From an uncultured Candidatus Berkelbacteria bacterium (GTDB lineage: Bacteria > Patescibacteriota > UBA1384 > XYA2-FULL-43-10 > CAINNR01): a stretch of DNA of 64,000 nucleotides. Both the position numbers and the translations under genes were made by a program. Shown here piece by piece: positions 34,664-61,400 of this stretch (the first letter of the stretch is position 1; each line of letters begins with the position of its first letter). The DNA is taken from contig CAINNR010000032.1 in the NCBI GenBank assembly GCA_903851235.1, positions 25-64,024 on the forward strand. Reading direction: 5' to 3'. The notes under the pieces were generated by a model. The model was not told the DNA's origin, ran no database searches, and was given only the letters and a program-made list of their open reading frames with translations.

Positions 34664-34693
34664 TCAAAAAAAGACGGCCAGTGGTCGGCCGTC
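34664..34693 (-). terminator. Intrinsic terminator of the 34692-35453 gene.
   Basis: gacggccgaccactggccgtc followed by tttttttt on the minus strand. Confidence 0.6.
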
Positions 34694-35453
34694 ATCGGTT
34701 GATGATTTCTTGGTGAGGAATGCGTGATTCGGCGATCACCGCTCCGGTCATTGTCGTCTGATCGGTATTTTCTGCGATCAGAACTTCTGCACTTTGTTGT
34801 AATTGATCTGCAACCGAAAGGTCTTTGCCGATTCGGTCGTTTGAGCAGTGGAAAGTTTTTGCCCAGTCATCAGCTTGTTGCTGGAGTATGATCAGCTGAT
34901 TTTCCAAATGTTCCATTGTTTTTTGTGACCGTTGAATTTCTGTATCAATTGATGGAATTCTAGACATCAACAGAGAGTTTCTTGACCTGTCACAGACTTT
35001 TCGGTCAAGATTCAAGTTGCCAATTGCTTTTTTCAACTTTCTGATGGATTTTTCTGTCTCTCGGATTTGTTCCATTAGACTTCTGTCCATTGGGTTTTTA
35101 TATCTCTGATTCCACGAATGCAACTTCCACTGGAACAGTCGCCAGCAGATTCGCGGGCTGAAGCGGAGGAGTTGGCGAAACAGCGGAACAAGAACAAAGT
35201 CGTAGAGCACGATCTGAATCATTCCGGGAAGTAATATTAACCACATGAAAGTGATAGGTCCTGGGCCGGGATCAGCCGAAAAGTCTGCAAGTCCATTCTT
35301 GCCCCATGGACTCTCCCCCTCTTTGGTCTCATCATATCGAAAATACCATGCGGCAATTGTTGTAATCAGAGACCAAATACCCAGTACACACATCCACCAA
35401 CTCATCAACATCACCTCTCTTACTGAGATACTTGAACCACTAAATATTATCAC
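34692..35453 (-). CDS. Membrane-anchored coiled-coil protein, hypothetical (paralog A).
   Basis: It shares an 'ILLPGMIQIVLYDFVLVPLFRQLLRFSPRICWR' block and about 100 bp of near-identical DNA with the next gene. Confidence 0.55.
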   Translation of the reverse strand: MIIFSGSSISVREVMLMSWWMCVLGIWSLITTIAAWYFRYDETKEGESPWGKNGLADFSADPGPGPITFMWLILLPGMIQIVLYDFVLVPLFRQLLRFSPRICWRLFQWKLHSWNQRYKNPMDRSLMEQIRETEKSIRKLKKAIGNLNLDRKVCDRSRNSLLMSRIPSIDTEIQRSQKTMEHLENQLIILQQQADDWAKTFHCSNDRIGKDLSVADQLQQSAEVLIAENTDQTTMTGAVIAESRIPHQEIINR

Positions 35454-35542
35454 GATTTTATTTTTTTGTCAAGATTTTCATTCACGATAATTAATTACCA
35501 ATAAAAAAAAGACGGCCAGCTTCGGCCGTCATTTGATAGTTG

Positions 35543-36235
35543 CTAGTGTTGTTCACCGCAAACTTTCGCTCTTGCCGCCTTTGTGGCGGTAAGTTTGTCA
35601 TCGATTTCTCGTGCAACTTCATCTGATATTTCCAAGAGTTCGTCAGCATTCAAAACGTCGTTCATGATTAAATCGCTGGGCCGAAAAAGTTCGAGGTGTT
35701 CAAGTTTTGCCGCTTCAATTTTTTGTAATTGAAGCTGTTGATCGGCAATTCTCTGGCGAAGATGTTTAATATCAGCTTCAACTTTTTCTAGCAATGCCTT
35801 GCGGGGAGTCTTCAAGCCTTCCAGAATCGCTCGATCAACCATAAGTGCTTTGATCCTGCTCTCCATTTTTGTGATTAGAGACTGAATTGATCTGGTGCAC
35901 TCATCGAATGAATCGGTTGAAACCTTGTTTTTTGCTCTAACGCGCCGTCCACCACGCCAAAGCTGAAACTTCCGCCAGCAGATTCGTGGGCTGAAGCGGA
36001 GGAGTTGGCGAAACAGCGGAGCAAGAACAAAGTCGTACAGCGCGATCTGGATAATTCCAGGAAAGATTATTAGCCAAAGGAAGCCTAACAACACGTCATA
36101 ATCAGGTGAAAAATCTATAAGGCCGCCATTGCCCCATATATTGCCTTTCTCTCTGACCGAAATATGCCGAAGCCACCATGCGGCAGCTGTCGCAACCAGC
36201 AACCAAATGGCTAATCCTGGCATCCACCAGACCAT
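35543..36235 (-). CDS. Membrane-anchored coiled-coil protein, hypothetical (paralog B).
   Basis: 'IIFPGIIQIALYDFVLAPLFRQLLRFSPRICWR'. Its own terminator at 35503-35530 resembles the paralog A terminator. Confidence 0.55.
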   Translation of the reverse strand: MVWWMPGLAIWLLVATAAAWWLRHISVREKGNIWGNGGLIDFSPDYDVLLGFLWLIIFPGIIQIALYDFVLAPLFRQLLRFSPRICWRKFQLWRGGRRVRAKNKVSTDSFDECTRSIQSLITKMESRIKALMVDRAILEGLKTPRKALLEKVEADIKHLRQRIADQQLQLQKIEAAKLEHLELFRPSDLIMNDVLNADELLEISDEVAREIDDKLTATKAARAKVCGEQH

Positions 36236-36328
36236 TACTACATCACCTCTCTCACTGAGATACTTAAGCCACTAAATATTAGCACGATTTTATTTTCTCG
36301 TCAAGATTTCTTTATCAAATTCTTGAAT

Positions 36329-37337: not shown

Positions 37338-37413
37338 GGGGTCGTAGTGTAGTGGTTATCACGTCTCCCTGTCACGGAGAAGATCGCCGGTTCGAGTCCG
37401 GTCGACCCCGCCA
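37338..37413 (+). tRNA. tRNA-Asp (anticodon GTC). It marks the left boundary of the cassette array.
   Basis: Acceptor ggggtcg/cgacccc, anticodon stem-loop tctcc-ctGTCac-ggaga, T-arm ccggt-tcgagtc-cggt, discriminator g, CCA. A TTGAAT-17-TAAAGT promoter lies upstream. Confidence 0.85.
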
Positions 37414-39744: not shown

Positions 39745-41175
39745 CTATGCCGAGGTGGCATGGGAATTGATCGTGTCATAGAGATTGTCGACCTTGCACT
39801 TGAAGAGGCCGGGGTCCTCTGTTAGTATCCACATCAGCTCAAGTACAGAGTCATGGATCTCCTCGCACTTGAAATGAGGCGAACGCAGGTCTCTCGTGGT
39901 CTGATAGTTCTCTCCTCGACAGTTGCCGGCACAGATATACCTGATATCGCAAGCCGCGCATTTTGGATTCATACTATCGATGTTCAGACTGCGAAGATCC
40001 GTCAGAATGGGGGATCCCTTCCAGATCTCAGCCAAACTATCGGTTTTCAGATTGCCCAGGCAGAAATCGGGGACCGCAGTATCGGCGCATGGGTACAGTG
40101 TGCCGTCCGGTTTAACGTAAACCGCTCGATTCGTACCGATTCCACAGCCGAAGCTTTTGACGCCTCCTGCGATTCCCATCACTTGGTTTGCGAAGGTCGA
40201 GTACATCATCAACTGCTGAAGTCGCTGATCATCTCGTATTGCTTCGAAAACCTTCCGGTAGAAATCCGCCAAAGGGACAGCAACGAGTTGTTGCTTCGTT
40301 TCGGCGCTGTTGCCTCGGCCTACATTCATCATGTTTAAACAGTTAAGGCCTTGGACTCCAAGAGAATCGACCAACTTGAGTGTTGGTCGGACCTCATCGA
40401 TATTGCCTGCGTGAATAAACATGTTGACGGCAACTGAGATCCCTGCGTCGCACAGTGCCTTGATGTTGTTGACTGTTGTAGTGAATGTTCCCTCTCCACG
40501 GATGTATTCGTGGCTCTCAGCCCGACATCCGTCAAGGGAAATCGACATTTTCAGCCGGGGATATTTCGCCAGTTGTTTGATATCTGCTGGCGCCAACAGA
40601 GTCGCATTGGTGTTCACTTGAGCGAAATAGCCATGGTTGTGAACATATTCAATCAGATCCATGGCATCGGGGCGGGTAAACAGCTCACCGCCGGTTAGGG
40701 CAACGCGCGATATGCCGTTTTCCCAGGGCATACTCGAAAGTTGATCGATAACTGCTTTGATTTCGACAGAAGTCATCTCGCCGGGGATCTTCTCTTTGGC
40801 CATGGCATAACACATTGCGCATTCCATGTTGCAGAGTTGAGTTGTGGCGATAACCAAGACATTTTCGACTTCATTGACTTGGAAATCCGGCTTATTCTCT
40901 TCGACATCAACCTTCTCACCATCTACTACCAGCACTCCAGCGGAGTGCAGCAGATCGATAGTTTCAGCGACGATGTCGCCAGCCTCCTCTGCTGAGAGTC
41001 CCAATTGGGTTCTGATCTTAGTGACAGCCACATCAGAGTTTCCACAAGCCAACGACTCAAGGATGAGGGCAATCTCCGCCGTTGCAGAGAACCAGTAGGG
41101 TGCTGAGGGAAAGATCACGACTGCTGATTCTTCCCTGAAATAGACCGATGGTTTTTCGGTGAATGCCAACTGCAT
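39745..41175 (-). CDS. Cassette 4: radical SAM enzyme with a C-terminal SPASM domain and a ~110-aa N-terminal extension (a possible RiPP recognition element). Likely a peptide-modifying maturase. GC-rich.
   Basis: 'CNMECAMC' (CxxxCxxC) and C-terminal 'CAACDIRYICAGNCRGENY'. RBS GGGAGA lies before ATG at 41175. Confidence 0.8.
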   Translation of the reverse strand: MQLAFTEKPSVYFREESAVVIFPSAPYWFSATAEIALILESLACGNSDVAVTKIRTQLGLSAEEAGDIVAETIDLLHSAGVLVVDGEKVDVEENKPDFQVNEVENVLVIATTQLCNMECAMCYAMAKEKIPGEMTSVEIKAVIDQLSSMPWENGISRVALTGGELFTRPDAMDLIEYVHNHGYFAQVNTNATLLAPADIKQLAKYPRLKMSISLDGCRAESHEYIRGEGTFTTTVNNIKALCDAGISVAVNMFIHAGNIDEVRPTLKLVDSLGVQGLNCLNMMNVGRGNSAETKQQLVAVPLADFYRKVFEAIRDDQRLQQLMMYSTFANQVMGIAGGVKSFGCGIGTNRAVYVKPDGTLYPCADTAVPDFCLGNLKTDSLAEIWKGSPILTDLRSLNIDSMNPKCAACDIRYICAGNCRGENYQTTRDLRSPHFKCEEIHDSVLELMWILTEDPGLFKCKVDNLYDTINSHATSA

Positions 41176-45460: not shown

Positions 45461-45498
45461 CAACAACAAGGAGGACGGACATCAGTTGTTCGTCTTCC

Positions 45499-45549
45499 CC
45501 CTCAACACATTAAGTGTTCTGATGAGTCGTTGAAATTACGACGAAAGGG
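45499..45549 (+). ncRNA. Hammerhead ribozyme (type III, open helix III), copy 1.
   Basis: CCCU-C|AACAC-auuaa-GUGUU-CUGAUGA-G-UCG-uugaaauua-CGA-C-GAAA-GGG. All core nucleotides are present. Helix I is a 5-bp hairpin, helix II is 4 bp closed by the conserved G10.1-C11.1 pair, and helix III is CCCU/AGGG. The predicted cleavage is after C at 45503. Confidence 0.75.
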
Positions 45550-45554
45550 ATAAA

Positions 45555-47913: not shown

Positions 47914-47966
47914 TAAGCACAACAACAGAGGGGATTCACTAAGAGGGTACGAAGTTGTACTCTCCC

Positions 47967-48017
47967 CCCTCAACATTAAATTGTTCTGATGAGTCGTTGA
48001 AAATTACGACGAAAGGG
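47967..48017 (+). ncRNA. Hammerhead ribozyme (type III), copy 2.
   Basis: CCCU-C|AACA-uuaaau-UGUU-CUGAUGA-G-UCG-uugaaaauua-CGA-C-GAAA-GGG. Helix I is 4 bp; in copy 1 a compensatory change makes it 5 bp. Confidence 0.75.
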
Positions 48018-48021
48018 ATAA

Positions 48022-48712: not shown

Positions 48713-48762
48713 AGTGTCGGCGACACGGGGACTTACCCAAATGGGCACGACCTGTGCCCATT

Positions 48763-48813
48763 CCCTCAACATTAAATTGTTCTGATGAGTCGTTGAAAAT
48801 TACGACGAAAGGG
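48763..48813 (+). ncRNA. Hammerhead ribozyme (type III), copy 3.
   Basis: CCCU-C|AACA-uuaaau-UGUU-CUGAUGA-G-UCG-uugaaaauua-CGA-C-GAAA-GGG. It is preceded by the terminator-like hairpin gggcac-gacct-gtgccc. Confidence 0.75.
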
Positions 48814-48818
48814 ATGAG

Positions 48819-50534: not shown

Positions 50535-50552
50535 TATCTAGTTTTGAGCTAA

Positions 50553-50650
50553 AAATCATCTCTAACATCGTTTTCTGCCCCCAGACATTAAAAATAGTCG
50601 CTCTGAAAGCGTCTATTTTTAATACTCCAGACCGGATGCAAAACTATAGA
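50553..50650 (+). repeat. Boundary element E18.
   Basis: catctctaacatcgttttctgcccccagacattaaaaatagtcgctctgaaagcgtctatttttaatactccagaccggatgcaaaactatag. Confidence 0.75.
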
Positions 50651-50813
50651 ATATTCTAATTGTATTTGCTAGGATGAAATTATATTGCTTATTAAGTCTT
50701 AATTGATGACTTCTTGGGGTAAATTTTACAAATTTATCATTAAAGTATATACTCAAAAGCAAAGAAGTGGGGGGGCAGATCAAGGCTCCGATTTTTAATT
50801 ATGAAGGGAGATT

Positions 50814-52088
50814 ATGAATCGATCGATCTCAGTAATTGGCTTGGGATATGTTGGCTTACCGCTTGCAATCTTGGCGGATCAGAAAAACTATCATGTAATA
50901 GGCATTGATACTGATCCTAAAAAGATTGCATTGCTAAACAAAAAACTATCACCTTTCCATGATAAAAAAATATCCAAGGATTTAAAAACTAGCGGTATCA
51001 TTGCCAGCCAAGATTATAATAATATCCAAAAATCTTCGATTATAATAATATGTGTTCCCACTCCGGTGAATGATGATCATACTCCAAACCTTAGCCCGGT
51101 TATAAATGCCTGCAAATCACTAGCTCCTTTTTTGCAAAAAGGCCAATTAATCATCCTTGAATCAACTGTTAATCCCGGCGTATCAGAAGATATCGTTCTG
51201 CCAATCTTAGAAAAAATATCAGGATTAAAGTGCGGGCCGGATTTTTCACTGGCTCACTGTCCAGAGAGAATCAACCCAGGTGATAAGAAATGGACTGTTG
51301 AGAATATTCCTAGAGTTATCGGCGCAACGGATGAAACCGGGTTGAAAAGAGCAGCTGAATTCTATCGCTCAATCATCAAAGGTGAAATAAAAGAAATGAA
51401 AACTATCAAAGAAGCAGAGGCTGTAAAAGTGGTTGAAAATTCATTTCGTGATATAAATATTGCTTTCGTCAATGAGCTCGCGATGTCTTTTGACAACCTG
51501 GGTATTGATGTCGTTAATGTCATCAACGGTGCCGCTACCAAACCCTTCGCCTTTATGGCCCACTACCCCGGTTGTGGAGTCGGTGGACATTGTATTCCGG
51601 TTGATCCATACTATCTTATTGAGTACGCTAGAAAGCATGGCTTTCAAAACGACTTTTTGTTGATGGCTCGTAATGTAAATAACAAAATGCCAAAATATAC
51701 TGCTGACAAAGTTTCTGATGAATTAAACCAAAAGAAGATAGCAATCAATGGCACCAAAGTCGCCGTATTGGGTTTGTCGTATAAATCAAATGTTGGTGAT
51801 GATCGGGAAAGTCCGTCATACAAAATCATACAAAATCTCGAAAAACTTGGCGCTGAAGTTGCCAGTTTCGACTCATATATTCCAGACAAATCCAGCGCTA
51901 GCACTCTGGAAGACGCTATCAACGGGGCCAAAGCGGTTGTAATTGCGACCTGCCATAAGGAATTTAGGAAGTTGACGCCAGAATATCTACGATCGTCTGG
52001 AATTGAAGTTGTAGTTGATGGGCGGAATTGCTTAAGTAAGGAGATTTTTTCCAGCTCTGGAATTATATATAAAGGTATTGGGCAGTAA
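50814..52088 (+). CDS. Nucleotide-sugar dehydrogenase (UDP-glucose/GDP-mannose dehydrogenase family).
   Basis: 'ISVIGLGYVGLPLAILADQ' Rossmann N-terminus and the catalytic-Cys region 'GGHCIPVDPYYL'. Confidence 0.85.
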   Translation: MNRSISVIGLGYVGLPLAILADQKNYHVIGIDTDPKKIALLNKKLSPFHDKKISKDLKTSGIIASQDYNNIQKSSIIIICVPTPVNDDHTPNLSPVINACKSLAPFLQKGQLIILESTVNPGVSEDIVLPILEKISGLKCGPDFSLAHCPERINPGDKKWTVENIPRVIGATDETGLKRAAEFYRSIIKGEIKEMKTIKEAEAVKVVENSFRDINIAFVNELAMSFDNLGIDVVNVINGAATKPFAFMAHYPGCGVGGHCIPVDPYYLIEYARKHGFQNDFLLMARNVNNKMPKYTADKVSDELNQKKIAINGTKVAVLGLSYKSNVGDDRESPSYKIIQNLEKLGAEVASFDSYIPDKSSASTLEDAINGAKAVVIATCHKEFRKLTPEYLRSSGIEVVVDGRNCLSKEIFSSSGIIYKGIGQ

Positions 52089-52091
52089 ATA

Positions 52092-53486
52092 ATGAATCTT
52101 TTATTCTCCAAAATTTCTCAGATATTAGACAAATTAATACGAAAAGAGGAAAAGCTCCGGCTTATTCCGCATTTTATTGTTATCTGTATTTTTACATTTC
52201 TAATTGCTAAAGTAGTTTTCAGGTCACCTACTTCCAATACAATATTATTTACTTATGGGATCACGGTCACATCAATATTATTTATGACTTTTACCGTCGC
52301 ATTTATCTTCTACAGGGATCCTTATGAAAAAGCTATGAAGGAAGCTAAAAAACTTTCCAAAATGGCGGACCCATTGGTTAGTTGCATGGTTGCAGTATTT
52401 AATGAAGAAAAAATTATTGAACAATGTGTTTTGTCAATTGTAAATCAAACATATCAGAATAAGGAAGTCATCTTCGTAAATGATAAAAGTACTGATAAAA
52501 CCGGCAAAATTCTCGATCGACTTGAAAAAAAATACAACTTCCGAACAATCCATCTGAAACAGAATCTTGGCAAGAAAGGTGCGCTTGCTCGCGCATGTCA
52601 TGAAGCAAAAGGCGATATACTGGCTTTTTCCGATAGTGATTCAATATGGGCCCCTGATGCGATAGAAAAAATTGTACCAATTTTTAAACACGACTCAAAA
52701 GTGGGGGCAGTTAGCGGTCATACACTGGCATTAAATGCCACTAAAAATCTACTCACAAGAGTCCAAGATTCCTGGTACGAAGGTCAATACTCCATCAGGA
52801 AAGCGTTTGAAAGTGTTTTCGGATGTGTAACTTGTGTTTCAGGTCCCCTAGCCGTTTTTCGTAGAGAAAGTATTTATAATTATATACCGGCATGGGAACA
52901 TGATAAGTTTTTGGGTCAACCATTTCGCTTTGCTACCGATCGAACTCTGACCGGCTTTGTCCTGGGTAGTAAATATATTAGTAAACGCATAAAGAAGAAA
53001 TACGCTACATCACCATTTATGAGCATTGATTATCCAGCGCAGGATTGGAAGATAGTATATTGCAAAGCTGCGCATGCCTGGACAGAAGTACCTGATACTT
53101 TTCGTGGGGTGATAAAACAACAAACGCGTTGGAAGAAGAGTTTTATCCGAAACATTTTTTTCACAGGCCGTTTCTATTGGCATAAACCACTTTTGCCTAC
53201 TCTGGTATATTACTTGCATATTGTCTTTGTTGTACTGGGCCCATTCGTTGTTTTTCGTCATCTAATTTACTTACCACTAAATGGAAATCTGTATTCAATG
53301 TTTCTCTACTTGGCTGGTATCTGTTTTATCGGTTTAATGTTCGGATTGGCAATAAAGCTTGAAGATCCAAAATCTCACCGTTGGATTTATCGACCGCTTA
53401 TGAGTCTGTTTTCAACACTGGTTTTGTCATGGCTTATTTTTTATTCAGCCTTAACTATCCGCAAGATGTTTTGGTCAAGGAATTAG
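52092..53486 (+). CDS. Processive family-2 glycosyltransferase (cellulose/chitin/hyaluronan-synthase-like), membrane-embedded.
   Basis: 'VAVFNEEKIIEQCVLSIVNQTY', 'VNDKSTD', 'FSDSDS', 'QQTRWKKSF' (QxxRW motif). Flanking TM helices. Confidence 0.8.
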   Translation: MNLLFSKISQILDKLIRKEEKLRLIPHFIVICIFTFLIAKVVFRSPTSNTILFTYGITVTSILFMTFTVAFIFYRDPYEKAMKEAKKLSKMADPLVSCMVAVFNEEKIIEQCVLSIVNQTYQNKEVIFVNDKSTDKTGKILDRLEKKYNFRTIHLKQNLGKKGALARACHEAKGDILAFSDSDSIWAPDAIEKIVPIFKHDSKVGAVSGHTLALNATKNLLTRVQDSWYEGQYSIRKAFESVFGCVTCVSGPLAVFRRESIYNYIPAWEHDKFLGQPFRFATDRTLTGFVLGSKYISKRIKKKYATSPFMSIDYPAQDWKIVYCKAAHAWTEVPDTFRGVIKQQTRWKKSFIRNIFFTGRFYWHKPLLPTLVYYLHIVFVVLGPFVVFRHLIYLPLNGNLYSMFLYLAGICFIGLMFGLAIKLEDPKSHRWIYRPLMSLFSTLVLSWLIFYSALTIRKMFWSRN

Positions 53487-53487
53487 T

Positions 53488-56400
53488 GTGAAAATCTTAC
53501 ACTTGAGAAAATTGGAAAAAAAAGCGAAGAAAATTAATAAAAGCAGCGCCAAAAAAGTAAGGCGTTTCTTTCGGAGACCTTCAACTCGCTGGATTGAAGT
53601 TGGAGTTTTTATTTTGTTGCTGCTTATATTCATCATAAAAACCACAAACTACATACATTGGGATGTCTTGAGTCCAGCACATGTTGCAGACTCGATTAAG
53701 AAAACTTTTGTACTAACAAAAAGAGATATTGCTGAGTTAAAATACTTCAAAAAATGTCCGGAAGGAGAGATTAAGGTCGATATCGGTATGAGCTATCTAT
53801 GTAGAGGTGAAACTAGCCCCGGCGTAGACCAAAAGATATATGATACATATCCAATCCACGGTAATGGCCGTGAGATAATTTATCCTTCGCTCGATGATGG
53901 CGATATTCAATCAGCTAATGACTTTGTAAACAACAAAATTGATATCAGTCGATATGATACGGTGTCATTGCCAGATGACCCTCAGTGGGATGAAGACCCA
54001 TATAATGATCGTTATTGGCGTATGAACTATTACAGTTTACGTCCAGTACTGGATCTGCTCTATGCCAGTAGAACAACCCACGACCCAAAGTACAACGATA
54101 AACTAATTACGACAGTTAATAGTTTTGTCACCACCGGCATAAACCGGCCTGACAGCTGGGATGATGCCCATGCAGTTGCTTTCCGGACAATGGCTCTTAC
54201 GGATATTTGGTGGAAAATGCGTGAGGAGCGAATACTTTCTATCGACGAAAGTAACAAGCTGCTAACTGCCCTCGAACAGCATGGTGAATATTTAGCGGAT
54301 CGTAATCATTATGACCCGGGGCAAAACCATGGGACAAACGAAGCAGCGGCGTTATACCTTCTGGCAAATAGTTTTCCTGATCTTCCCGGCTCATCAGGCT
54401 GGCTTAGCGTATCACAAGACAGGATCAATACCAGCATGGATAATCTTATCGATCAAGATGGTGCTTTAACTGAGAACTCTCCTTATTATCATTTCTACAC
54501 ATTACAAAAGTACTGGGATATTTACCAATATTCCAATCAACAGCGGCAGTATTTTAATCCAGAGTTTAAAAATAAACTCTACCAGATGATCTCTTATGCT
54601 ACGTATATCTTACAGCCTGATGACAGCCCCCCTCTCTTAGGGGCTTCACTGCAAACAATAATCAATAAGCATGCTGAATATGGTGAAATGGCTGCGATAG
54701 ATCCGCAATTTTTATATGTTCTTACTCAGGGCAAAAAAGGCAAAAAACCGAAGAATCTTAACAAATTCTATTCTGACACCGGTCAAACCATTATGCGTTC
54801 TGGCTGGGGTATGGGTGATGAGTTTATTAACCAGACTCAACTAATTTATGATGTAGGAGCTTATCGCACGGATCACAGCGATTACGACGCATTGAGTTTT
54901 TCTTTGTACTCAAACGGGATAACGCTTCTGCCTGATTCTGGTTTGTGTACATATGCCCCGGGACCTTACCGTGATTATTTTCATGGTACCGCCGCCCATA
55001 ATACCGTAGTAGTGGATGACAAAGACCAGGCAACGGGTTCAGCTTCGGCTGGTGATTTTGTGACGAATAAAGATTATACCCTGCAGACTGCTCAGCATCA
55101 GCTATATGCGGGCGTAACCCATGAACGCAGCATAATCATGCTGGATAAGTCACACAGCTTGATTATTGATAAGCTGATTTCGGAACAGGTTCATAATTAC
55201 AAGCAAATGTTTCATCTATTTCCAGGTGCTGTCTTTAGTAAAGATGGTTTAACCGTTAAGGGAGTGGGGGATAACCCAGAACAATCCATAACCGTCCAAC
55301 AGTTAAAGACAGATGGTATTACAGAGTCAGATTCTATCAATCAGACTTCTCCACCAGCTGGCATATGCTCAGAGGAGTACAATAGATACGTCCCGTGCGA
55401 ATCGGTTGCCTATAGCCAAAATGGAAAAGATGCTTATTTTGTGACTTTGCTAACCATCGGTAGTGGGGACCCGCAATTCCATGCAACATTAAGTGCAGAC
55501 CAATCAGAAATCACTATTGATCAAAACCACAAACATCTCAATTTCAAAGTCGGCCAGACTGAACAAAAAGCTGAAGTAATAAGGGCAACTGACCCTAAAG
55601 CCCCCGACTTCGCAAAAAACTCTGTGGCGGGATTTGACGACCTAAATAACTGGACTAGCGATCTTGGCACTCTCTCAAAAGATTCAACCTCTGGGGCGGT
55701 GTCTCTTCAACTAGCCGGTACAACAAAAGATCAAACAATGGAGAATAATAAGGTAAATATTGATTTATCTCACGCAAACATGGCGGTGCAAATGCGCATC
55801 ACGAATAGAGTAAACGTAAAAGATTTTGAACTGTCTCTATCTAATAATCACTGGTCAACTTTTGCCACAAACAATATTGATTATGCCTACGGTGCTGATT
55901 ATTATGGAGAATGGATCAACATTTCTCTCGGCAAAGGTACAGAAAGAGACAGGAATGGTCATTGGTCAATAAGTGGCCAATTCGATTGGGGCAAAATCGA
56001 TGGAGTGCGTCTAAAAATCACGGGGAAAGAAAATAGCAACAGTACCGTAGAGTTGGGATCTCTCTACACCACTCCAGAGCAGCAGCAGGGTGGAGTGGTT
56101 ATTGTCTTTGACGATGGTTACGATTCTGTTTTACCGGCAGCTGATTATCTCCGCCAACTGAATCTCAAAGCGAACATCGCTGTAATTGCCAAAGATGTTG
56201 TGACGCCCACGAGAGGATATCTTGGGTTAAATGACCTCAAGAATCTTCAGAATCAATTTGGCTGGAACATTGCAAGCCACTCCTATGATCACGTTGATGC
56301 CGTTCAAGCATATTTTCAGACGGGCGAACTGGATCAATACCAAGCAGATATTCTTGCTGGGGCAAAGTTTCTTTCAGATAATAAAATCGATAGTGCTCCC

Positions 56401-56919
56401 AATTGGTTTATATACCCTCACGGAACCACCAACAGTGCATTAAAAGCTGTAGTAAGTAAATACTACAAGTTTGCCAGAGTTACGACTAATGAGCCCGAGG
56501 TTTATCCTTTCGGTGACCCTTATCTTGTCAAAACTATGTCTGTGCAAAATAATTCGGATGGCTCTGAAGATATAGCTGATCAAAAGGTTGCAACAACGCC
56601 TGATGATGTTGCAAAAGCTGTTAGCGATGCTAAAAACTTTAAGACCACTTTATTCCTAACTTTCCACCGTATCCACTCTAAGCCATCAGACAGGCCAGGT
56701 TATGAGCTGACCGATTTTAAAAAAATCGCCGATAACCTTAAGCAGCAAAATATTTCAGTTTTAACACTTAGTGATCTAGACAAGCAAAATGGTGTTCCGC
56801 TTGATAATAAGATTATTTTTGGCGATAATAAACCTGCACAGTTGTCAATAGAGGTACAAGTTACATCAGACAGCATATTTAAAAGAATTAAAAGCTTATT
56901 CTCATGGCTAAAAATATAA
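53488..56919 (+). CDS. Large membrane-anchored fusion protein: a heparinase II/III-like (polysaccharide lyase or epimerase fold) domain plus a C-terminal NodB-type polysaccharide deacetylase.
   Basis: 1143 aa. N-terminal TM; 'DDAHAVAFRTMALTDIWW'; 'NHGTNEAAALYLLANSF'; C-terminal 'VVIVFDDGYDSVLPAADYL...IASHSYDHVD' (NodB motifs 1-3). Confidence 0.65.
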   Translation: MKILHLRKLEKKAKKINKSSAKKVRRFFRRPSTRWIEVGVFILLLLIFIIKTTNYIHWDVLSPAHVADSIKKTFVLTKRDIAELKYFKKCPEGEIKVDIGMSYLCRGETSPGVDQKIYDTYPIHGNGREIIYPSLDDGDIQSANDFVNNKIDISRYDTVSLPDDPQWDEDPYNDRYWRMNYYSLRPVLDLLYASRTTHDPKYNDKLITTVNSFVTTGINRPDSWDDAHAVAFRTMALTDIWWKMREERILSIDESNKLLTALEQHGEYLADRNHYDPGQNHGTNEAAALYLLANSFPDLPGSSGWLSVSQDRINTSMDNLIDQDGALTENSPYYHFYTLQKYWDIYQYSNQQRQYFNPEFKNKLYQMISYATYILQPDDSPPLLGASLQTIINKHAEYGEMAAIDPQFLYVLTQGKKGKKPKNLNKFYSDTGQTIMRSGWGMGDEFINQTQLIYDVGAYRTDHSDYDALSFSLYSNGITLLPDSGLCTYAPGPYRDYFHGTAAHNTVVVDDKDQATGSASAGDFVTNKDYTLQTAQHQLYAGVTHERSIIMLDKSHSLIIDKLISEQVHNYKQMFHLFPGAVFSKDGLTVKGVGDNPEQSITVQQLKTDGITESDSINQTSPPAGICSEEYNRYVPCESVAYSQNGKDAYFVTLLTIGSGDPQFHATLSADQSEITIDQNHKHLNFKVGQTEQKAEVIRATDPKAPDFAKNSVAGFDDLNNWTSDLGTLSKDSTSGAVSLQLAGTTKDQTMENNKVNIDLSHANMAVQMRITNRVNVKDFELSLSNNHWSTFATNNIDYAYGADYYGEWINISLGKGTERDRNGHWSISGQFDWGKIDGVRLKITGKENSNSTVELGSLYTTPEQQQGGVVIVFDDGYDSVLPAADYLRQLNLKANIAVIAKDVVTPTRGYLGLNDLKNLQNQFGWNIASHSYDHVDAVQAYFQTGELDQYQADILAGAKFLSDNKIDSAPNWFIYPHGTTNSALKAVVSKYYKFARVTTNEPEVYPFGDPYLVKTMSVQNNSDGSEDIADQKVATTPDDVAKAVSDAKNFKTTLFLTFHRIHSKPSDRPGYELTDFKKIADNLKQQNISVLTLSDLDKQNGVPLDNKIIFGDNKPAQLSIEVQVTSDSIFKRIKSLFSWLKI

Positions 56920-57731
56920 AAATATCGGCAATAGTTTTATTAATAATTATTGCGACCGTGGCCATAGGCAGCCTCTATTATTATCTGCATCGGACGAAAC
57001 AGGTTGATAAGAATAGTCAGACCCTGTTTCTTGATAAACTTGATGGATCTGACCGCCTAGTCACCAACGAGTATGTGTATTGGAATCCTAACTCAACTTG
57101 TCCGTATAAATCAGATAAGTGGGATATGACAAGCGGCACACTGCTGATCAAAAATGGAGTTGGTTATTCAGGGCTGCCTAACAAAGAGAGCCGATCTGTA
57201 TGTGAATCAAATAATCAAACAAATTCTTATACTTTTAGGCTTAATACCAAAGATGCTAGCTTCACTAACACAGTTACATCTCTAGATTACGAAATGCTCA
57301 AACATGGTGATGCTTCCAGTAATACCGAAAATTCCTATGACGGTTTACATATTTGGGTTCGATACCAAAGCCAATATGCGCTCTATGCAGTATCAATTAG
57401 TCGATGGGATGGTAACTTAGCGATTAAAAAGAAGGTACCCGTAGAGATAGCTCACTGCAGCGATCCATCAAATGAAGGCTGCTATTATGATCTTGTTAGT
57501 CAAGTCAATCGACCCGATCTTACAAAATCTGCTGTATGGCATCATGCAGACATCACCACTGAGGATAGATCGGATGGCAAACTTCAGATTAAATTAGTTA
57601 TAGATGGTCAGACCGCTCTTGAAGCAACCGATGGTGGTGAACATGATTCTGTTTATCACACTGGTGCAGTTGGTGTACGCGGAGACAACACAGAATTTTA
57701 CTTTAAAAATTTTTTGGTTAAAAAAACCTAA
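56904..57731 (+). CDS. Membrane-anchored secreted protein, hypothetical (a possible concanavalin/LamG-like carbohydrate-binding or lyase fold).
   Basis: N-terminal TM; a beta-rich sequence; its start overlaps the upstream gene. Confidence 0.45.
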   Translation: MAKNIKISAIVLLIIIATVAIGSLYYYLHRTKQVDKNSQTLFLDKLDGSDRLVTNEYVYWNPNSTCPYKSDKWDMTSGTLLIKNGVGYSGLPNKESRSVCESNNQTNSYTFRLNTKDASFTNTVTSLDYEMLKHGDASSNTENSYDGLHIWVRYQSQYALYAVSISRWDGNLAIKKKVPVEIAHCSDPSNEGCYYDLVSQVNRPDLTKSAVWHHADITTEDRSDGKLQIKLVIDGQTALEATDGGEHDSVYHTGAVGVRGDNTEFYFKNFLVKKT

Positions 57732-57857
57732 AGAGCCAGATATCGATCTCAACAACGGCAAAAATTGGGCACTTAATTTAAAAGTTACAGATGTTGGCAA
57801 TGGTTTTGCTGGGCTCCAGTAATTAAACTATTAATTCTTCTGACCGGAAGATCAGAA

Positions 57858-57925
57858 AAGGTCTAAACTTCAATCGCTATGCTCCTCCATAATATAAAAT
57901 AGCCGTTTGGGCTTTTTTGTTTAGT
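57858..57925 (+). repeat. Boundary element E22 (degenerate right half).
   Basis: ggtctaaacttcaatcgctatgctcctccataatataaaatagccgtttgggcttttttgtttag. Confidence 0.6.
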
Positions 57926-57981
57926 TTCAGTTTTGTCCTGTGCTACAATGTAATTAAGAATAACTATTATCGGAGGGCGGA

Positions 57982-60516
57982 ATGTCTATGTTTTGGTTTG
58001 TGTTGCCGATTTTTGCTCTACTAGTAGCTATAGTCCGCAAGGATTTGCGCTTCCAAATGTTTTTGGCCGCCGTACTTTCAATTCCGATATTGATAATTAA
58101 ACCCCTAACCGATCCGAATTTTTTGCAAATAATAGCCGGTCTCGATCTAATAATTTTCTTTGCTGCTAGATTAATTATTGTTGCCTCATTTGCAGCCCTG
58201 GCGGCTGCGGTTTATGAACTATTTTTTCATAATAAAATTTCTCCTGTCCCGCACTCACAACGACCACGACTGCTCTGGTTGCTGAGTGGTCTTTTGTTCT
58301 TGGCTATATTGCTACTTTTGGGTCAAAGCTTTATTGTCGCTATTTTGGCGGCACTTTTGGTTGATCTGATAATAGTGATAATACTGCGCCCCGGTTTGAT
58401 TTGGGATGTCATCTTCTCCGGATTTTTCATGGGGTTTTTATATCTTTTTATTTATTTAATTGCATTTCGCGGTTTCCCCGGCGGACTAAATAATATTTGG
58501 TTTACGGATAGACTTTCCGGTCTAACGCTTTGGTCGCTGCCGGTTGAGGAGCTTCTGGCTGTGGTTTTGTTTGGTGCACTCGTTGGTCCGCTCTACACTG
58601 CAATTAAAACTTTAAAACTGCCAACTAAAATTATCCCATCAGAAGTCTCCGAAAAGAAGCTTGCAAATCCTAAAGTTATTTTTGGTTGGTTGATAATAGT
58701 TTTTTCTTTGCTTGCAATTTTGTTTGGGGCTTATTATTTTGTGATTCCACCGAAGGTCTCTACTTCAACGCCAAAAAATAGTACTTCCAGTGTTGGTTTG
58801 GTTGATGACATCGGTCTTAAATTCAACAAACCAATAAATCGTGATGTCATAAATTTTTCAATTCTACCAGACGTTTCCGGAGTCTGGCATTTTTCCAACG
58901 GAACATTGGCTAATCATTTATTTAGCCAAGCAAATTTTACGCCGGACAAACCACTTGCGGCAGAACAAGAATATACGATTAAAGTCACTAATATCCGTAA
59001 TTTAATCAATACTTCTTCCGGTGCCGATTTTCAATTTTCTTTCCGAACTGAGAGTTTGCCGAAAATCGATCATGCATCAATTGCCGATGGACAAACTGGT
59101 GTGATGCTAAATGATCCGATTAATATTTATTTGAGTCAGAAAAATAATAAAGTCGTAGATTTTAATTTCAAATTTGATCCAGCCGTTGATTTTACACCGT
59201 CAATTTCGGCTGATGGAATGCAGTATACTCTAAAATTAAACCAGCCGCTGACTCAAGGCGCAGTTTACAAATTAACGACGCTTGGTTGGATTTTGCCTGG
59301 TGCTGGAAATCCGGCCCCAGACGCTAATTGGCAAATGGCTTTTACCACAAAAGAGCCGCCAGCGCTTGCCAGTTACACCCCTCAAGGCAGTGGAATTTTG
59401 ACTGACAGTGGAAATATCACTTTGAATTTTGTTCAACCAATGGTTCAAGATGATGTATTGGGTCATATTTCAATTACTCCGGAGATAAAAGGCAGTTGGA
59501 AATGGCAGACTTCGACGAAACTGGTTTACAGCATCAACCAAAAATTATCGTTTGCTACCGGATACACAATTTTAATTGCTAAAGGTGTCCACGATCAATC
59601 GGGCGGTTTTATTGATAATGATATCAAAGCCACTTTTACTACTATCGGGAGTGTTCAAGTCAGTATTTTTTCGCCGAAAAACGCTGGTAGTAATGTCGCT
59701 ACCGATGCAAAAATATCAATTACTTTTGATCAGGCAGTTGACCACGGTTCAGCCGAGCGTGCTTTTTCAGTTTCACCGACTCTAAGTGGCAATTTTTCTT
59801 GGAGCGGTAATAAGATGATTTTTTCTCCCGATGGATTAAAGAAAGATTCGACTTACAATATCAATCTCGCGGCCGGCATCAAAAGTATCTCCGGTCTTGA
59901 TTCGAACAAAATCTTTTCCGCCAGTTTTTCCACTATTACCAGTTCTATTATTCTAAATATTGGAATTGATTATCAGGACCAGGCGCTTTCCTGCGAAGCG
60001 GCGTCGCTGAAAATGGCACTGAACTACCGTGGTGTCGGCGTGACTGAAAACGATATCATGGCTCGAATCGGTTACGACCCAACAATCCGAAATGGCAACA
60101 TTTGGGGTAATCCGAATAATGCTTTTGTCGGCAGTATTAACGGTCGGCAAGATACTACCGGCTATGGTGTTTACTGGCAGCCGATTGCCAGGGCTGCAAA
60201 TGTTTGGCGATCGGCAATTGCTTTTTCCGGCTGGTCGCCAAGCCAAATTGCCGGAGCGATCGCCGACAATAATCCGGTTATTTTGTGGGGAACTTACGGC
60301 AACGCTTCGCGTGATGATTGGCAAACGCCGGACGGCCAGCATATTCTCGCTTGGAAGGGAGAACATGCCAGAACAATTATCGGTTTTTTGGGCACAGCTG
60401 ACAACCCTACTAGCTTTGTTATCAATGATCCTGTCGCCGGACGAATAACCTGGACCGCTGCCCAACTTGCCGGTAACATGTCAGCTTTCGCTGGTAGCGG
60501 AGTCGTAGTTTATTGA
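57982..60516 (+). CDS. Large membrane protein: an N-terminal polytopic domain, bacterial Ig-like repeats and a C-terminal C39-like (Peptidase_C39_2) domain.
   Basis: 844 aa. Repeated Big-like '...S.S..I.I.F...V' segments. The C-terminal 'YQDQALSCEAASLKMALNYRGVGVTENDIMARIGYD' carries a catalytic Cys context. An extended -10 (TGcTACAAT) lies upstream. Confidence 0.6.
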   Translation: MSMFWFVLPIFALLVAIVRKDLRFQMFLAAVLSIPILIIKPLTDPNFLQIIAGLDLIIFFAARLIIVASFAALAAAVYELFFHNKISPVPHSQRPRLLWLLSGLLFLAILLLLGQSFIVAILAALLVDLIIVIILRPGLIWDVIFSGFFMGFLYLFIYLIAFRGFPGGLNNIWFTDRLSGLTLWSLPVEELLAVVLFGALVGPLYTAIKTLKLPTKIIPSEVSEKKLANPKVIFGWLIIVFSLLAILFGAYYFVIPPKVSTSTPKNSTSSVGLVDDIGLKFNKPINRDVINFSILPDVSGVWHFSNGTLANHLFSQANFTPDKPLAAEQEYTIKVTNIRNLINTSSGADFQFSFRTESLPKIDHASIADGQTGVMLNDPINIYLSQKNNKVVDFNFKFDPAVDFTPSISADGMQYTLKLNQPLTQGAVYKLTTLGWILPGAGNPAPDANWQMAFTTKEPPALASYTPQGSGILTDSGNITLNFVQPMVQDDVLGHISITPEIKGSWKWQTSTKLVYSINQKLSFATGYTILIAKGVHDQSGGFIDNDIKATFTTIGSVQVSIFSPKNAGSNVATDAKISITFDQAVDHGSAERAFSVSPTLSGNFSWSGNKMIFSPDGLKKDSTYNINLAAGIKSISGLDSNKIFSASFSTITSSIILNIGIDYQDQALSCEAASLKMALNYRGVGVTENDIMARIGYDPTIRNGNIWGNPNNAFVGSINGRQDTTGYGVYWQPIARAANVWRSAIAFSGWSPSQIAGAIADNNPVILWGTYGNASRDDWQTPDGQHILAWKGEHARTIIGFLGTADNPTSFVINDPVAGRITWTAAQLAGNMSAFAGSGVVVY

Positions 60517-61400
60517 CACCAATATTAATTTATAGTACAGTAAGGATTAAGCAAATCAATCAAAAAAAACAAATGGATAATAACGATAATTCTATTGGGA
60601 GAGAAGAAATCAAAACTTTTGGCGATTATTATTACCGGCCAAAAGCTAAACGCAATTCCTGGTTGAAAATTACCGGGCTGATTTTGCTTGTCGCAATTTT
60701 TCTTGGCGCTGGTTACTATGGGTATCGTCGTTGGCGTTCAAATAGATTAACAGAGAATAACTCCATTGTCGATGTTCCGGTGATAGAAAAGCCAGCCATT
60801 GTCTCGCCGTCAAATCCGGTTATCACACCAGCGGCAATTCCGGCTTCCGGTATGCTTATCGTACCATTTACGACTCAAGCGCCGTTTGCCAATTGGGATG
60901 CCACACACGAGGAGGCTTGTGAAGAAGCCAGTTTAATTATGCTTCATCATTATCAAAACGGAACTGCGATTGACTCCCCAACTTCGGCCGACAAAGAGAT
61001 TTTGGATTTAATCAGTTGGGAAACCGATAATGGTTATGGTGTTGATGTTACACTTGAACAACTTTCTGATATTGCCAGACGGTATTATGGTATGAGCAGT
61101 GGCCGAATTATTACCGATGTTACTACCGACACGATCAAAAAGGAGATCTCGGCCGGTCATCCGATAATTATACCGGCTGCGGGAAAAATCCTGCCGAATC
61201 CGAATTTCCGCGATGGCGGTCCAAACTATCACATGCTGGTTATAATCGGATATAATCAAACAGACTTTATCACCAACGATCCCGGTACCAGAAATGGCCA
61301 AAATTTTCACTATACTTACGATGGTCTCTTAAATGCTGTCCATGATTGGAACCCTGACAATATTCTTAACGGTCCAAAAGAACTCCTAGTTTTTGACTGA
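60513..61400 (+). CDS. Membrane-anchored C39-like peptidase domain protein.
   Basis: 'FTTQAPFANWDATHEEACEEASLIMLHHY' (Cys) ... 'HMLVIIGYN...DP' (His). The start may be ATG at 60573. Confidence 0.6.
   Translation: MTPILIYSTVRIKQINQKKQMDNNDNSIGREEIKTFGDYYYRPKAKRNSWLKITGLILLVAIFLGAGYYGYRRWRSNRLTENNSIVDVPVIEKPAIVSPSNPVITPAAIPASGMLIVPFTTQAPFANWDATHEEACEEASLIMLHHYQNGTAIDSPTSADKEILDLISWETDNGYGVDVTLEQLSDIARRYYGMSSGRIITDVTTDTIKKEISAGHPIIIPAAGKILPNPNFRDGGPNYHMLVIIGYNQTDFITNDPGTRNGQNFHYTYDGLLNAVHDWNPDNILNGPKELLVFD

Follow-up and report, generated by a model that had tools for sequence, protein, structure and literature searches.

Does a block of four closely spaced genes in a Candidatus Berkelbacteria bacterium encode a complete route to a cell-surface polysaccharide, to what kind of polymer would this route lead, and is the block a mobile cassette? 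The original prediction was that of a self-contained synthase-dependent system for a uronic-acid or amino-sugar polymer, with the logic of PNAG, hyaluronan or heparosan, carried as a mobile cassette between two repeat elements (E18 and E22) in a reduced-genome organism. Our answer is that the four genes most probably build an acidic amino-sugar polymer destined for the cell surface, pass it out of the cell, de-acetylate it and trim it, and that this polymer probably differs from those named and the mobility of the block is doubtful. The features are collected in Table 1; "the window" denotes the whole stretch of DNA that was analysed, i.e., 64,000 nucleotides. The reduced-genome host is supported by its DnaK, which is 80-93% identical to proteins of Berkelbacteria and Patescibacteria (89% to Berkelbacteria).

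Table 1. Features of the four-gene operon and its surroundings (positions of the window; aa, amino acid residues).
Feature	Positions	Strand	Basis or remark
Source stretch (the window)	contig CAINNR010000032.1, 25 to 64,024	forward	GCA_903851235.1, uncultured Candidatus Berkelbacteria bacterium, 64,000 nucleotides
Upstream array element E18	50551..50671	+	nhmmer 74.5 bits
Promoter-like site TTTACA-17-TATACT	50725..50753	+	upstream of operon; 10/12 consensus positions (consensus scan; putative function)
RBS-like GAAGGGAG	directly before ATG of dehydrogenase gene	+	sequence inspection
Nucleotide-sugar 6-dehydrogenase, 424 aa	50814..52088	+	UDP-N-acetylhexosamine clade by model ranking
Integral-membrane GT2 synthase, 464 aa, HAS/chitin-synthase-like	52092..53486	+	Pfam, motifs, hydropathy
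Membrane-anchored fusion, 1143 aa, N-in/C-out	53488..56919	+	K/R-rich N-terminal tail, TM aa 33-55 (hydropathy)
PL12-like (heparinase III-like) module	53824..55587	+	alpha/alpha toroid aa ~113-412, beta-sandwich aa ~426-700
Intermediate beta-sandwich domain, aa ~720-863	55645..56076	+	probably carbohydrate-binding
CE4/NodB deacetylase barrel, aa ~869-1100	56092..56787	+	FDD875-876G, H931-S-Y-D-H935, Y976-P-H978, F-H1060-R
Membrane-anchored concanavalin-like protein, 275 aa	56904..57731	+	TM helix aa ~3-29; overlaps fusion gene by 16 nt
Downstream partial array element E22	57854..57974	+	nhmmer 43.2 bits

The region 50814-57731 contains four intact open reading frames that are translationally coupled, with intergenic gaps of 3, 1 and -16 nt, so that the tight coupling claimed for them holds. 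They are accompanied by a promoter-like site on the 5' side and by a terminator, and from this arrangement follows that the block is probably one transcription unit for a synthase-dependent cell-surface polysaccharide system. All domains assigned to the dehydrogenase, the GT2 and the fusion exceed their Pfam cut-offs, and the earlier assignments were in this respect correct. Neither a Wzx/Wzy or ABC exporter nor a sugar transporter or downstream catabolic genes were found in the four-gene block.

Consider the dehydrogenase, which had been placed in the UDP-glucose dehydrogenase family. Its three UDPG_MGDP_dh Pfam domains, a GxGxxG motif at residues 9-14, the catalytic-cysteine motif GGHC260 and a score of 413 bits against the subfamily model TIGR03026 (cut-off 190) leave the family intact, but not the substrate that its name suggests. 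The models of UDP-ManNAc dehydrogenase (312 and 239 bits) and of TviB (245 bits) outscore those of UDP-glucose dehydrogenases (192, 144 and 73 bits), and among structures in the PDB the best matches are 4r16 (264 bits) and Cap5O (233 bits), while UDP-glucose dehydrogenases reach at most 141 bits. The same ranking, with UDP-HexNAc above UDP-glucose, is found for all nine operon-linked orthologues tested. Judged by these rankings, the enzyme is of the UDP-N-acetylhexosamine type (WecC/Cap5O/TviB-like) and not of the UDP-glucose type. WecC, Cap5O and TviB/WbpA are its best-scoring relatives and share the GGHC motif and all three domains, but the operon enzyme stays below every equivalog cut-off (312.5 versus 750 and 238.9 versus 459 for UDP-ManNAc dehydrogenase, 245.2 versus 592 for TviB), which makes UDP-ManNAc, UDP-GlcNAc and UDP-GalNAc indistinguishable as substrate. 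No 2-epimerase is encoded in the block or elsewhere within the window, and because the block lacks this enzyme UDP-GlcNAc is the simplest candidate.

The second gene encodes, as predicted, a membrane GT2 with all motifs of a processive synthase. Glycos_transf_2 is matched with 115 bits and Chitin_synth_2 with 62 bits (cut-off 27), and the motifs are D131/D135, D181-S-D183 within FSDSDS, T282-D283-R284 and Q343-Q-T-R346-W347; these D, DSD, TDR and QQxRW motifs are invariant in six orthologues. Hydropathy gives TM-like segments at residues 24-42, 51-73, 370-395, 403-421 and 436-456, i.e., two on the N-terminal and about three on the C-terminal side of the catalytic domain, and the C-terminal region aligns with the membrane region of CvHAS; to judge from the sequence, these flanking helices could form a translocation channel. 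Among solved integral-membrane synthases in the PDB, class I hyaluronan synthases (HAS) are the sole match, also over the QQxRWxKS stretch, and the two have in common the DxD, xDR, QQxRWxKS and C-terminal W..R motifs (here W461-x-R463), but differ in that HAS has GDDR where the operon GT2 has ATDR. Membership of the PNAG (PgaC/IcaA) equivalog TIGR03937 was rejected at 150 bits versus a cut-off of 422, with only residues 51-271 covered, and membership of the NodC equivalog at 135 bits versus 550. The match to heparosan synthases is confined to the GT domain, of which it covers only the N-terminal half. There is no small membrane open reading frame between or after the operon genes that could be a PgaD/IcaD partner.

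The third gene product is a membrane-anchored protein in which a heparinase II/III-like domain is joined to a NodB-type deacetylase, a prediction now supported by the Pfam domains Hepar_II_III_N, Hepar_II_III_C and Polysacc_deac_1, by fold matches and by the TM segment. The K/R-rich N-terminus in front of this segment, together with two conserved Cys pairs, is in keeping with a position of the large domain outside the membrane. For residues ~110-700 the best match in both sequence and fold is PL12, with its (alpha/alpha) toroid and antiparallel beta-sandwich, at an identity of 17-20%. Residues N280, Y334 and H463 align to Asn240, Tyr294 and His424 of 4MMH, where Tyr294 and His424 are catalytic and Asn240 is neutralising (PMC12088678). 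They are conserved in 46/46 (N280), 45/46 (Y334) and 45/46 (H463) homologues. Equivalog membership with HepC was rejected, since the two NCBIfam models give 102 bits versus a cut-off of 700 and 76 versus 600. The intermediate beta-sandwich and the CE4 barrel constitute a two-domain unit; searched as single domains, the former has no match in PDB or Pfam and the latter weak matches only. Motifs 1, 2 and 5 of CE4 enzymes (catalytic base, Asp-His-His metal triad and catalytic acid) are present, with fold and residues conserved, while the motif-3 RxPY position is, in the sequence alignment, occupied by a family-conserved W973-F-I-Y976-P977-H978-G without Arg. The objection that both domains might lack their catalytic residues falls away, as these are kept in 41-46 of 46 homologues.

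The fourth protein, which has no Pfam match, had been described as secreted, beta-rich and lectin-like, and its structural model (pLDDT 91) agrees: a TM helix is followed by a concanavalin-like (DUF1080/LamG-type) beta-sandwich, predicted to be extracytoplasmic, with the jelly-roll fold of the Concanavalin A-like lectin/glucanase superfamily. In fold comparison a CBM and a lectin-like protein rank highest, but enzymes (GH16, PL7, PL14) also have the ConA-like fold, so that the protein may do more than bind. A PL7-like catalytic reading was rejected, as the tyrosine of YFKNF is not conserved. In certain relatives the enzyme itself carries a ConA-like LamG_3 domain as a C-terminal fusion (P0017, aa 1248-1429). 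Neither BLASTP nor hhalign matched the fourth protein to the C-terminal LamG_3 of 1441-aa relatives or to the LamG_3 protein encoded downstream in Gaiellaceae, and what ties it to the other ConA-like partners is therefore its position, its class of fold and the architecture of the fusions, and nothing more.

How far does this gene arrangement extend beyond Berkelbacteria? About 70 loci were found to carry the operon, with GC contents of 0.29-0.73 and from Actinomycetota as well as Patescibacteria, so that the block is not unique to the Berkelbacteria contig and its genes do occur together in other genomes. The fusion protein falls into 289 clusters at 90% identity, and its C-terminal half, at E values no worse than 1e-30, into 61 clusters at 50% identity; a scan of genome contigs with a single protein query gave two loci, in Micropruina and Nostocoides, and a search of viral contigs for relatives of the fusion protein was negative. 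The GT2 gene adjoins the fusion gene in 51/53 testable non-redundant loci, CE4 is part of the fusion in 57/64, and a same-strand open reading frame of ~300 aa lies downstream in 41/50, where 19 of the 39 scanned match ConA-superfamily Pfam models. GT2, fusion and ConA-like gene are the conserved core of the operon family. Of 40 testable loci, 24 have a dehydrogenase of the same type upstream and 16 have no dehydrogenase nearby, which means that the uronic acid may be optional or supplied from another source. The open-access literature yielded no description of the operon, nor of a PL12-like and a CE4 domain on one membrane-anchored protein in a characterised exopolysaccharide system, and no biochemistry for members of the family, which is apparently a conserved, uncharacterised one of Actinomycetota and Patescibacteria.

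From the observed domains, folds, conserved residues, gene coupling and synteny we infer substrates, a polymer chemistry and a direction for each activity as follows. In the cytoplasm, the dehydrogenase would convert a UDP-N-acetylhexosamine into its uronic acid by oxidation at C6. The HAS-like GT2 would polymerise UDP-sugars and extrude the chain, as it grows, through a membrane channel formed by the synthase itself, making a separate exporter unnecessary. Outside the membrane, the CE4 domain of the anchored fusion would strip some N-acetyl groups from the chain, while the heparinase-III-like domain would cut beside uronic acids by beta-elimination, so that polymer is released, sized or cleared. 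The anchored concanavalin-like protein may bind the acidic polymer for retention at the surface or presentation to the enzyme. The product is then likely to be a partly de-N-acetylated polymer with N-acetylhexosaminuronic acid. The part of the original prediction that concerned a self-contained system for an acidic or amino-sugar polymer is in line with the HAS-like GT2, the absent exporter, the extracytoplasmic modifying enzymes and the conserved synteny.

The polymers originally proposed as models are disfavoured. That the product is hyaluronan- or heparosan-like (GlcA-GlcNAc) or PNAG could be argued from the closeness of the GT2 to class I hyaluronan synthases, from its partial matches to PgaC/IcaA and NodC, and from the cleavage of heparan sulfate by the enzyme that, among those characterised, is nearest to the lyase domain. 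A hyaluronan synthase would, however, be linked to a UDP-glucose dehydrogenase that supplies GlcA, and the dehydrogenase here, like its operon-linked orthologues, ranks with the UDP-HexNAc enzymes; a dehydrogenase of this type makes the GlcA polymers hyaluronan and heparosan, as well as PNAG, which has no uronic acid, less likely than a HexNAc-uronic-acid polymer. Heparosan synthases are, moreover, soluble, dependent on ABC transporters and similar to only half of the GT domain, and for PNAG the equivalog cut-offs are far from reached, the PgaD/IcaD partner is absent and the polymer would offer the lyase no uronic acid. Taken together, these polymers are quite improbable products. A different question is what the heparinase-III-like domain does to the preferred acidic polymer. 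Its fold is also that of human dermatan-sulfate epimerase, so that it may either cleave or epimerise, and the domain might then be a polymer-level C5-epimerase that converts hexuronic residues of the nascent chain while CE4 de-N-acetylates, in parallel with the maturation of heparan sulfate; this reading of the fold comparison we consider unlikely.

Two further readings do without a surface polymer of the cell's own making. In one, the NodB-family deacetylase encoded beside a GT2 with a partial NodC match would, by Nod-factor logic (NodC plus NodB), yield short, diffusible and partly deacetylated oligosaccharide signals. NodB is cytoplasmic, but the deacetylase here is extracytoplasmic and membrane-anchored, the NodC cut-off is missed, the operon has no acyltransferase or exporter, and the lyase domain, the CBM-like domain and the lectin-like partner all point to a polymer, so that signals of this kind are very improbable. 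In the other, the fusion and the lectin-like protein would degrade glycosaminoglycan-like polymers from a host or the environment and the GT2 would be their neighbour by coincidence. CPR bacteria rely on host-derived material and the characterised PL12 enzymes are catabolic, but the persistence of the GT2 beside the fusion over so wide a range of GC, the overlapping or almost abutting genes, and a block without sugar transporter or downstream catabolic genes make such a coincidence scarcely credible.

The synthesis, export and trimming of an acidic polymer by one operon has parallels in known systems. Like streptococcal hasAB, the operon combines a synthase with a precursor dehydrogenase, here encoded directly upstream, and one membrane-embedded GT2 is predicted both to polymerise and to translocate; HasB, however, belongs to the UDP-glucose type and the dehydrogenase here to the UDP-HexNAc type, and has operons lack the attached lyase/deacetylase and the lectin-like gene. 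PgaB (PNAG) and PelA (Pel) are bifunctional extracytoplasmic modification enzymes of synthase-dependent systems, but their cleaving domain is a glycoside hydrolase (GH153 or GH166) where the fusion has a PL12-like lyase fold, an N-terminal TM anchor, one more beta-sandwich and, as a protein of its own, a ConA-like partner, and the present operon is without PgaD/IcaD and c-di-GMP receptor. Heparinase III (Pedobacter HepC 4mmh, Bacteroides BT4657), the best match with aligned Asn, Tyr and His, differs by the low identity of the fusion's domain and by the latter's membrane anchor, CE4 partner and biosynthetic context. Alginate is a synthase-dependent acidic polymer, which the lyase AlgL of its biosynthetic operon trims or clears, in likeness to the role proposed here; AlgL is, however, a soluble periplasmic PL5 enzyme, and alginate is modified by O-acetylation and epimerisation, not N-deacetylation, in a Gram-negative envelope-spanning machine.

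If the proposed scheme is right, the family represents a route, widespread and as yet unstudied, by which an acidic amino-sugar polymer with part of its N-acetyl groups removed is made. CPR bacteria are ultra-small, poor in biosynthetic genes and attached to other cells in their way of life, and a self-contained operon for a surface polymer is a concrete candidate for the means by which they attach or are protected. The GT2 is 56-71% identical to its orthologues, Gaiellaceae included, and since this range spans the CPR and Actinomycetota versions the family should be easy to test in a culturable actinobacterium, with a definite product to search for; its enzymes could also serve as tools to make or cut hexosaminuronic polymers.

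Is the operon, finally, a mobile cassette? One may envisage that an undescribed synthase-dependent, GAG-like N-acetylhexosaminuronic polymer system, matured by one lyase/epimerase plus N-deacetylase, has been captured and moved in CPR bacteria as a whole 7-kb operon that forms one cassette of a tRNA-anchored integron-like array, with ~100-nt hairpins as recombination sites, but this we regard as improbable. Integron arrays and tandem islands at tRNA genes do resemble what is seen here, namely an array whose 16 related ~100-nt elements all point the same way, start at the 3' end of a tRNA-Asp and have short gene sets between them; they differ in that the present array is without integrase in the window, its elements carry a terminator, and those that flank the operon are the most decayed. 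No recombinase or integrase was found among the open reading frames scanned around tRNA-Asp or in the array within the window. The block has a GC3 of 0.32-0.38, versus 0.32-0.49 for core genes, and a codon-usage distance that is only slightly higher; such host-like composition gives no signal of recent acquisition. In other genomes the operon sits among housekeeping genes, the element motif of the Berkelbacteria array is absent from the first 11 relative loci fetched, and the repeats around a tRNA-Thr-adjacent operon copy (L040) show no att-like duplication. Exact look-up of the Berkelbacteria fusion protein matched no contig, and all contigs matched by the fourth protein in the same way were short and carried the same neighbours, hence no presence/absence polymorphism by which to test mobility.

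The claim that E18 and E22 bound the operon survives in part. E18 is a member of a real repeat family. It has a 3' box CCAGACCGGATGCAAAAC, a terminator hairpin (50590-50620) and a box that resembles, in degenerate form, the 3' end of tRNA-Asp, although in its predicted fold the central hairpin alone is left and the outer pairing is lost. E22 is partial: in the alignment of copies its 5' box is recognisable, as is a terminator hairpin plus T-run (57896-57918), but there is no 3' box, and the fold z-score is only -1.15. The family profile finds 16 copies, all on the plus strand between 37396 and 62892, starting at the tRNA-Asp 3' end, with none inside 50672-57853. Its 16-nt core motif occurs 8 times versus 0.00 expected by chance, and the full copies form imperfect ~100-nt hairpins, with a terminator in the elements and often a promoter after them.

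The polysaccharide operon consists of four intact plus-strand reading frames of 424, 464, 1143 and 275 aa, which are separated by 3 nt, by 1 nt and then by an overlap of 16 nt. In Pfam, the first of them has the complete set of three UDP-glucose/GDP-mannose dehydrogenase domains, the second has Glycos_transf_2, Glyco_tranf_2_3 and Chitin_synth_2, the third has Hepar_II_III_N, Hepar_II_III_C and Polysacc_deac_1, and the fourth has no match. The GT2, Hepar_II_III and Polysacc_deac_1 domains that the original prediction expected from such a search are thus recovered, and its coordinates, domain assignments, motifs and membrane anchors were all right, as judged from the reading frames, Pfam, hydropathy and an orthologue alignment.

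Coordinates of the operon and of other features (nt in the window unless a locus or aa is stated)
Feature	Position	Strand	Remark
Four-gene operon	50814-57731	+	
Promoter-like TTTACA-17-TATACT	50725-50753	+	sequence scan
Hairpin and T-run	57896-57918		3' of last operon gene
tRNA-Asp(gtc)	37338-37413		array starts at tRNA 3' end
Repeat array	37338-62892		
Array element E18	50551-50671		flanks operon
Array element E22	57854-57974		flanks operon
Hammerhead match, type III (RF00008)	45496-45552	+	
Hammerhead match, type III (RF00008)	47964-48020	+	
Hammerhead match, type III (RF00008)	48760-48816	+	
Big_5/C39 interval	57982-61400		next inter-element interval
Radical SAM/SPASM gene	39745-41175	-	476 aa
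Tandem coding repeats	812-1147		three, 84-nt spacing
Direct-repeat pair	35130-35477, 35963-36309		
Direct-repeat pair	3309-3413, 4169-4274		
Paralogous-looking ORFs	34692-35453, 35543-36235		adjacent
tRNA-Thr(tgt), locus L040	3074-3148		~200 nt upstream of operon dehydrogenase
Region of four-gene block and small-gene run, locus L009	11653-17375		
Fusion protein, K/R-rich tail	N-terminal		AlphaFold model
Fusion protein, TM helix	aa 33-55		AlphaFold model
Fusion protein, alpha/alpha toroid	aa ~113-412		AlphaFold model
Fusion protein, beta-sandwich paired with toroid	aa ~426-700		AlphaFold model
Fusion protein, further beta-sandwich	aa ~720-863		AlphaFold model
Fusion protein, CE4 barrel	aa ~869-1100		AlphaFold model

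The third gene encodes a fusion protein with 289 cluster-level relatives, and the best 120 of these 289 are all full length with 39-55% identity; for its C-terminal half, clustering at 50% leaves 61 representatives that reach E of 1e-30 or better. For counts of synteny, 92 loci were retrieved and duplicates were removed, and each denominator is the number of loci that could be tested. The GT2 gene lies directly upstream of the fusion gene in 51/53 loci, in 43 of them with at least 50% identity to the GT2 of the window, a dehydrogenase gene occurs within 4.5 kb upstream in 24/40, the CE4 domain is fused in 57/64, and a same-strand reading frame of at least 150 aa follows directly downstream in 41/50. 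When 39 of these downstream frames were scanned, Laminin_G_3 was found in 14, DUF1080 in four and CBM_11 in one, all of them belonging to the ConA-like superfamily, and in some relatives (P0017, aa 1248-1429) the fusion enzyme itself carries Laminin_G_3 at its C-terminus. From this co-occurrence of GT2, dehydrogenase, CE4 and ConA-like genes across loci follows that the block belongs to a conserved family of operons and is no one-off assembly, and that it recurs in other genomes, as a search proposed with the original prediction was meant to reveal. Named sources of relatives are Gaiellaceae, Micropruina, Nostocoides and Rugosimonospora among the Actinomycetota, and Saccharimonadales. At seven loci (L061, L063, L064, L069, L074, L077 and L088) the heparinase-like protein stops at about residue 690, and no CE4 domain was found within 1.7-6 kb downstream; at eight others the GT2 is just ~30% identical to that of the window.

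In the GT2 the motifs D131/D135, DSD181-183, TDR282-284, QQTRW343-347 and the terminal W461-x-R463 are all present and invariant in orthologues, and hydropathy places two membrane segments at the N-terminus and about three at the C-terminus. The only integral-membrane synthases in the PDB that it matches, with the single sequence or with an orthologue profile, are the class I hyaluronan synthases (HAS) Xenopus HAS1 and Chlorella virus HAS; the similarity lies in three stretches, with CxSGPL, xDRxLT and QQxRWxKS among the residues matched. With heparosan and chondroitin synthases the match is confined to the N-terminal half of its GT domain. PgaC/IcaA is a partial match with 150 bits against a cut-off of 422, and NodC a partial match with 135 bits against 550. 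Since the motifs are complete, HAS is matched and both cut-offs are far away, the enzyme is predicted to be a processive synthase of the HAS/chitin-synthase-like kind in a distinct clade, with a product that cannot be read from sequence. Identity to the GT2 of loci with GC of 0.44-0.71, Gaiellaceae included, is 56-71%.

The dehydrogenase scores 413 bits with the nucleotide-sugar dehydrogenase subfamily model TIGR03026 (cut-off 190) and reaches no equivalog cut-off, i.e., no curated score for same-function membership, among the models scored. The archaeal UDP-ManNAc dehydrogenase model gives 312 bits, TviB (UDP-GlcNAc dehydrogenase) 245 and WecC 239, compared with 192, 144 and 73 bits for the UDP-glucose dehydrogenase models AglM, TuaD and Ugd. 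In the PDB, 4r16 (UDP-ManNAc dehydrogenase) gives 264 bits and Cap5O 233, compared with 141 for the best UDP-glucose dehydrogenase, and the ranking of the models is the same for the operon-linked dehydrogenases of nine other loci with GC of 0.35-0.67. The enzyme carries GGHC260IPVDP, invariant among orthologues, a stretch that marks the active site in the HexNAc clade. The original assignment to the UDP-glucose dehydrogenase family holds at the level of the family but probably not of the substrate, for which a UDP-N-acetylhexosamine is a likelier choice than UDP-glucose, and because no UDP-GlcNAc 2-epimerase was found in the window, UDP-GlcNAc would be the simplest candidate.

For the fusion protein, the structure prediction called for at the outset gave a confident alignment-based AlphaFold model (pLDDT 87.7, pTM 0.83) with a fold like that of heparinase III (PL12) and a CE4 barrel. 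The top Foldseek match of the lyase-like part is heparinase III (E 3e-30, TM 0.72), followed by PL39, PL15, PL35, PL17, PL33 and PL21 lyases and human dermatan-sulfate epimerase 1. In a HMMER alignment N280, Y334 and H463 correspond to chain residues 216, 270 and 400 of Pedobacter heparinase III, i.e., to Asn240, the neutraliser, and to Tyr294 and His424, the general base/acid (PMC12088678). The CE4 motifs FDDG, HSYDH and FH align with solved CE4 enzymes, and the canonical motif-3 arginine appears to be absent. Among 46 full-length homologues, N280 and D875 are kept in all 46, Y334, H463 and D876 in 45, H1060 in 44, H931 in 43 and H935 in 41, and since the residues of both parts are conserved, the loss of catalytic residues from both domains, named beforehand as the outcome that would speak against the original prediction, does not occur. 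The cysteine pairs C90/C105 and C627/C637, both conserved in the same alignment, fit a probable extracytoplasmic location. Because the fold is also that of dermatan-sulfate epimerase, the lyase-like domain may be either a lyase or a C5-epimerase.

The fourth protein is modelled (pLDDT 91) with a TM helix that leads into a concanavalin-like beta-sandwich, and it has 43 sequence relatives, 30-63% identical and often with PF06439, one of them from Saccharimonadales. Arg, Lys, His and Asp are prominent among its invariant residues, a composition that is compatible with the binding of an acidic polymer but no proof of it, and the protein could be either a binder or a catalyst.

The most economical model of the operon is a synthase-dependent pathway, in which a precursor would be oxidised in the cytoplasm, the HAS-like GT2 would polymerise and translocate the chain, the anchored fusion protein would partly N-deacetylate it and then trim or release it by beta-elimination, and the anchored lectin-like partner would bind the product. 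PgaB and PelA likewise combine a cleaving domain with a CE4 domain and act next to a GT2 synthase, and a lyase-like domain within a biosynthetic operon has its parallel in AlgL of the alginate operon. The uronic acid that a lyase requires would come from the linked dehydrogenase; it is mainly from this that the product is predicted to be an acidic HexNAc-uronic polymer, an argument of internal consistency. By its parts the operon is of a known kind, a system in which exopolysaccharide production depends on a synthase, and no account of it was found in the open-access literature. New are the PL12-like and CE4 domains on one anchored protein, the ConA-like partner and the HexNAc-type dehydrogenase; the operon merits experiment but will not surprise the specialist.

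Patescibacteria proteins share 80-93% identity with the DnaK of the window, and the closest named ones come from Berkelbacteria, in support of the reduced-genome host that had been proposed. From the tRNA-Asp gene to 62.9 kb there are 16 related elements of ~100 nt in one orientation, each made up of a 5' box like the last bases of the tRNA, a terminator hairpin and a 3' box AGACNGRRTRYARAAC, a motif that occurs 8 times where 0.00 are expected. Full copies fold as imperfect hairpins of ~100 nt. The elements are often followed by a TTGACA-17-TATAGT promoter, and the gene sets between them span 0.5-7 kb, with the operon in the largest interval. The array looks like an integron or like serial integrations at a tRNA site, and anatomically the cassette setting of the operon is real. 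Of the mobile cassette originally proposed, the element-bounded setting stands; mobility is hypothetical. The flanking elements are decayed (E18 has lost its outer pairing and E22 is without the 3' box), the composition of the block is host-like, and no recombinase was seen within the window. In other genomes the operon lies among housekeeping genes. A groundwater contig from the 0.1-um fraction (L040) has the same four-gene block downstream of tRNA-Thr, with no att-like direct repeat or flanking repeats around it. On a CPR-like contig with GC of 0.45 (L009), a series of small genes, all on the same strand, comes after the block; they are separated by repeats of their own, a box like a tRNA T-arm and 3' end, GTTCGAAG...CCCAGCTCAGCCAA, with the terminator AAAGACCCnnGAGGGTCTTTT; this array is analogous in type to that of the window and unrelated in sequence.

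Each of the three hammerhead matches (40.6, 36.1 and 32.4 bits, all below the gathering score of 48.5; E 1.4e-6 to 2.7e-4) ends exactly at the start of an array element, and none adjoins the polysaccharide operon. In the interval after the one that holds the operon, a gene codes for an 844-aa protein in which a multi-TM N-terminus is combined with four Big_5 Ig-like domains and a C39-like peptidase domain; the gene that follows overlaps it and codes for a 295-aa C39-like peptidase. The tandem coding repeats lie near the window start, and the two direct-repeat pairs have spacings of ~830-860 nt and 86-91% identity, one pair spanning the paralogous-looking ORFs. The radical SAM/SPASM gene, on the opposite strand within an otherwise plus-strand cassette array, has a GC3 of 0.57, much higher than elsewhere in the window.
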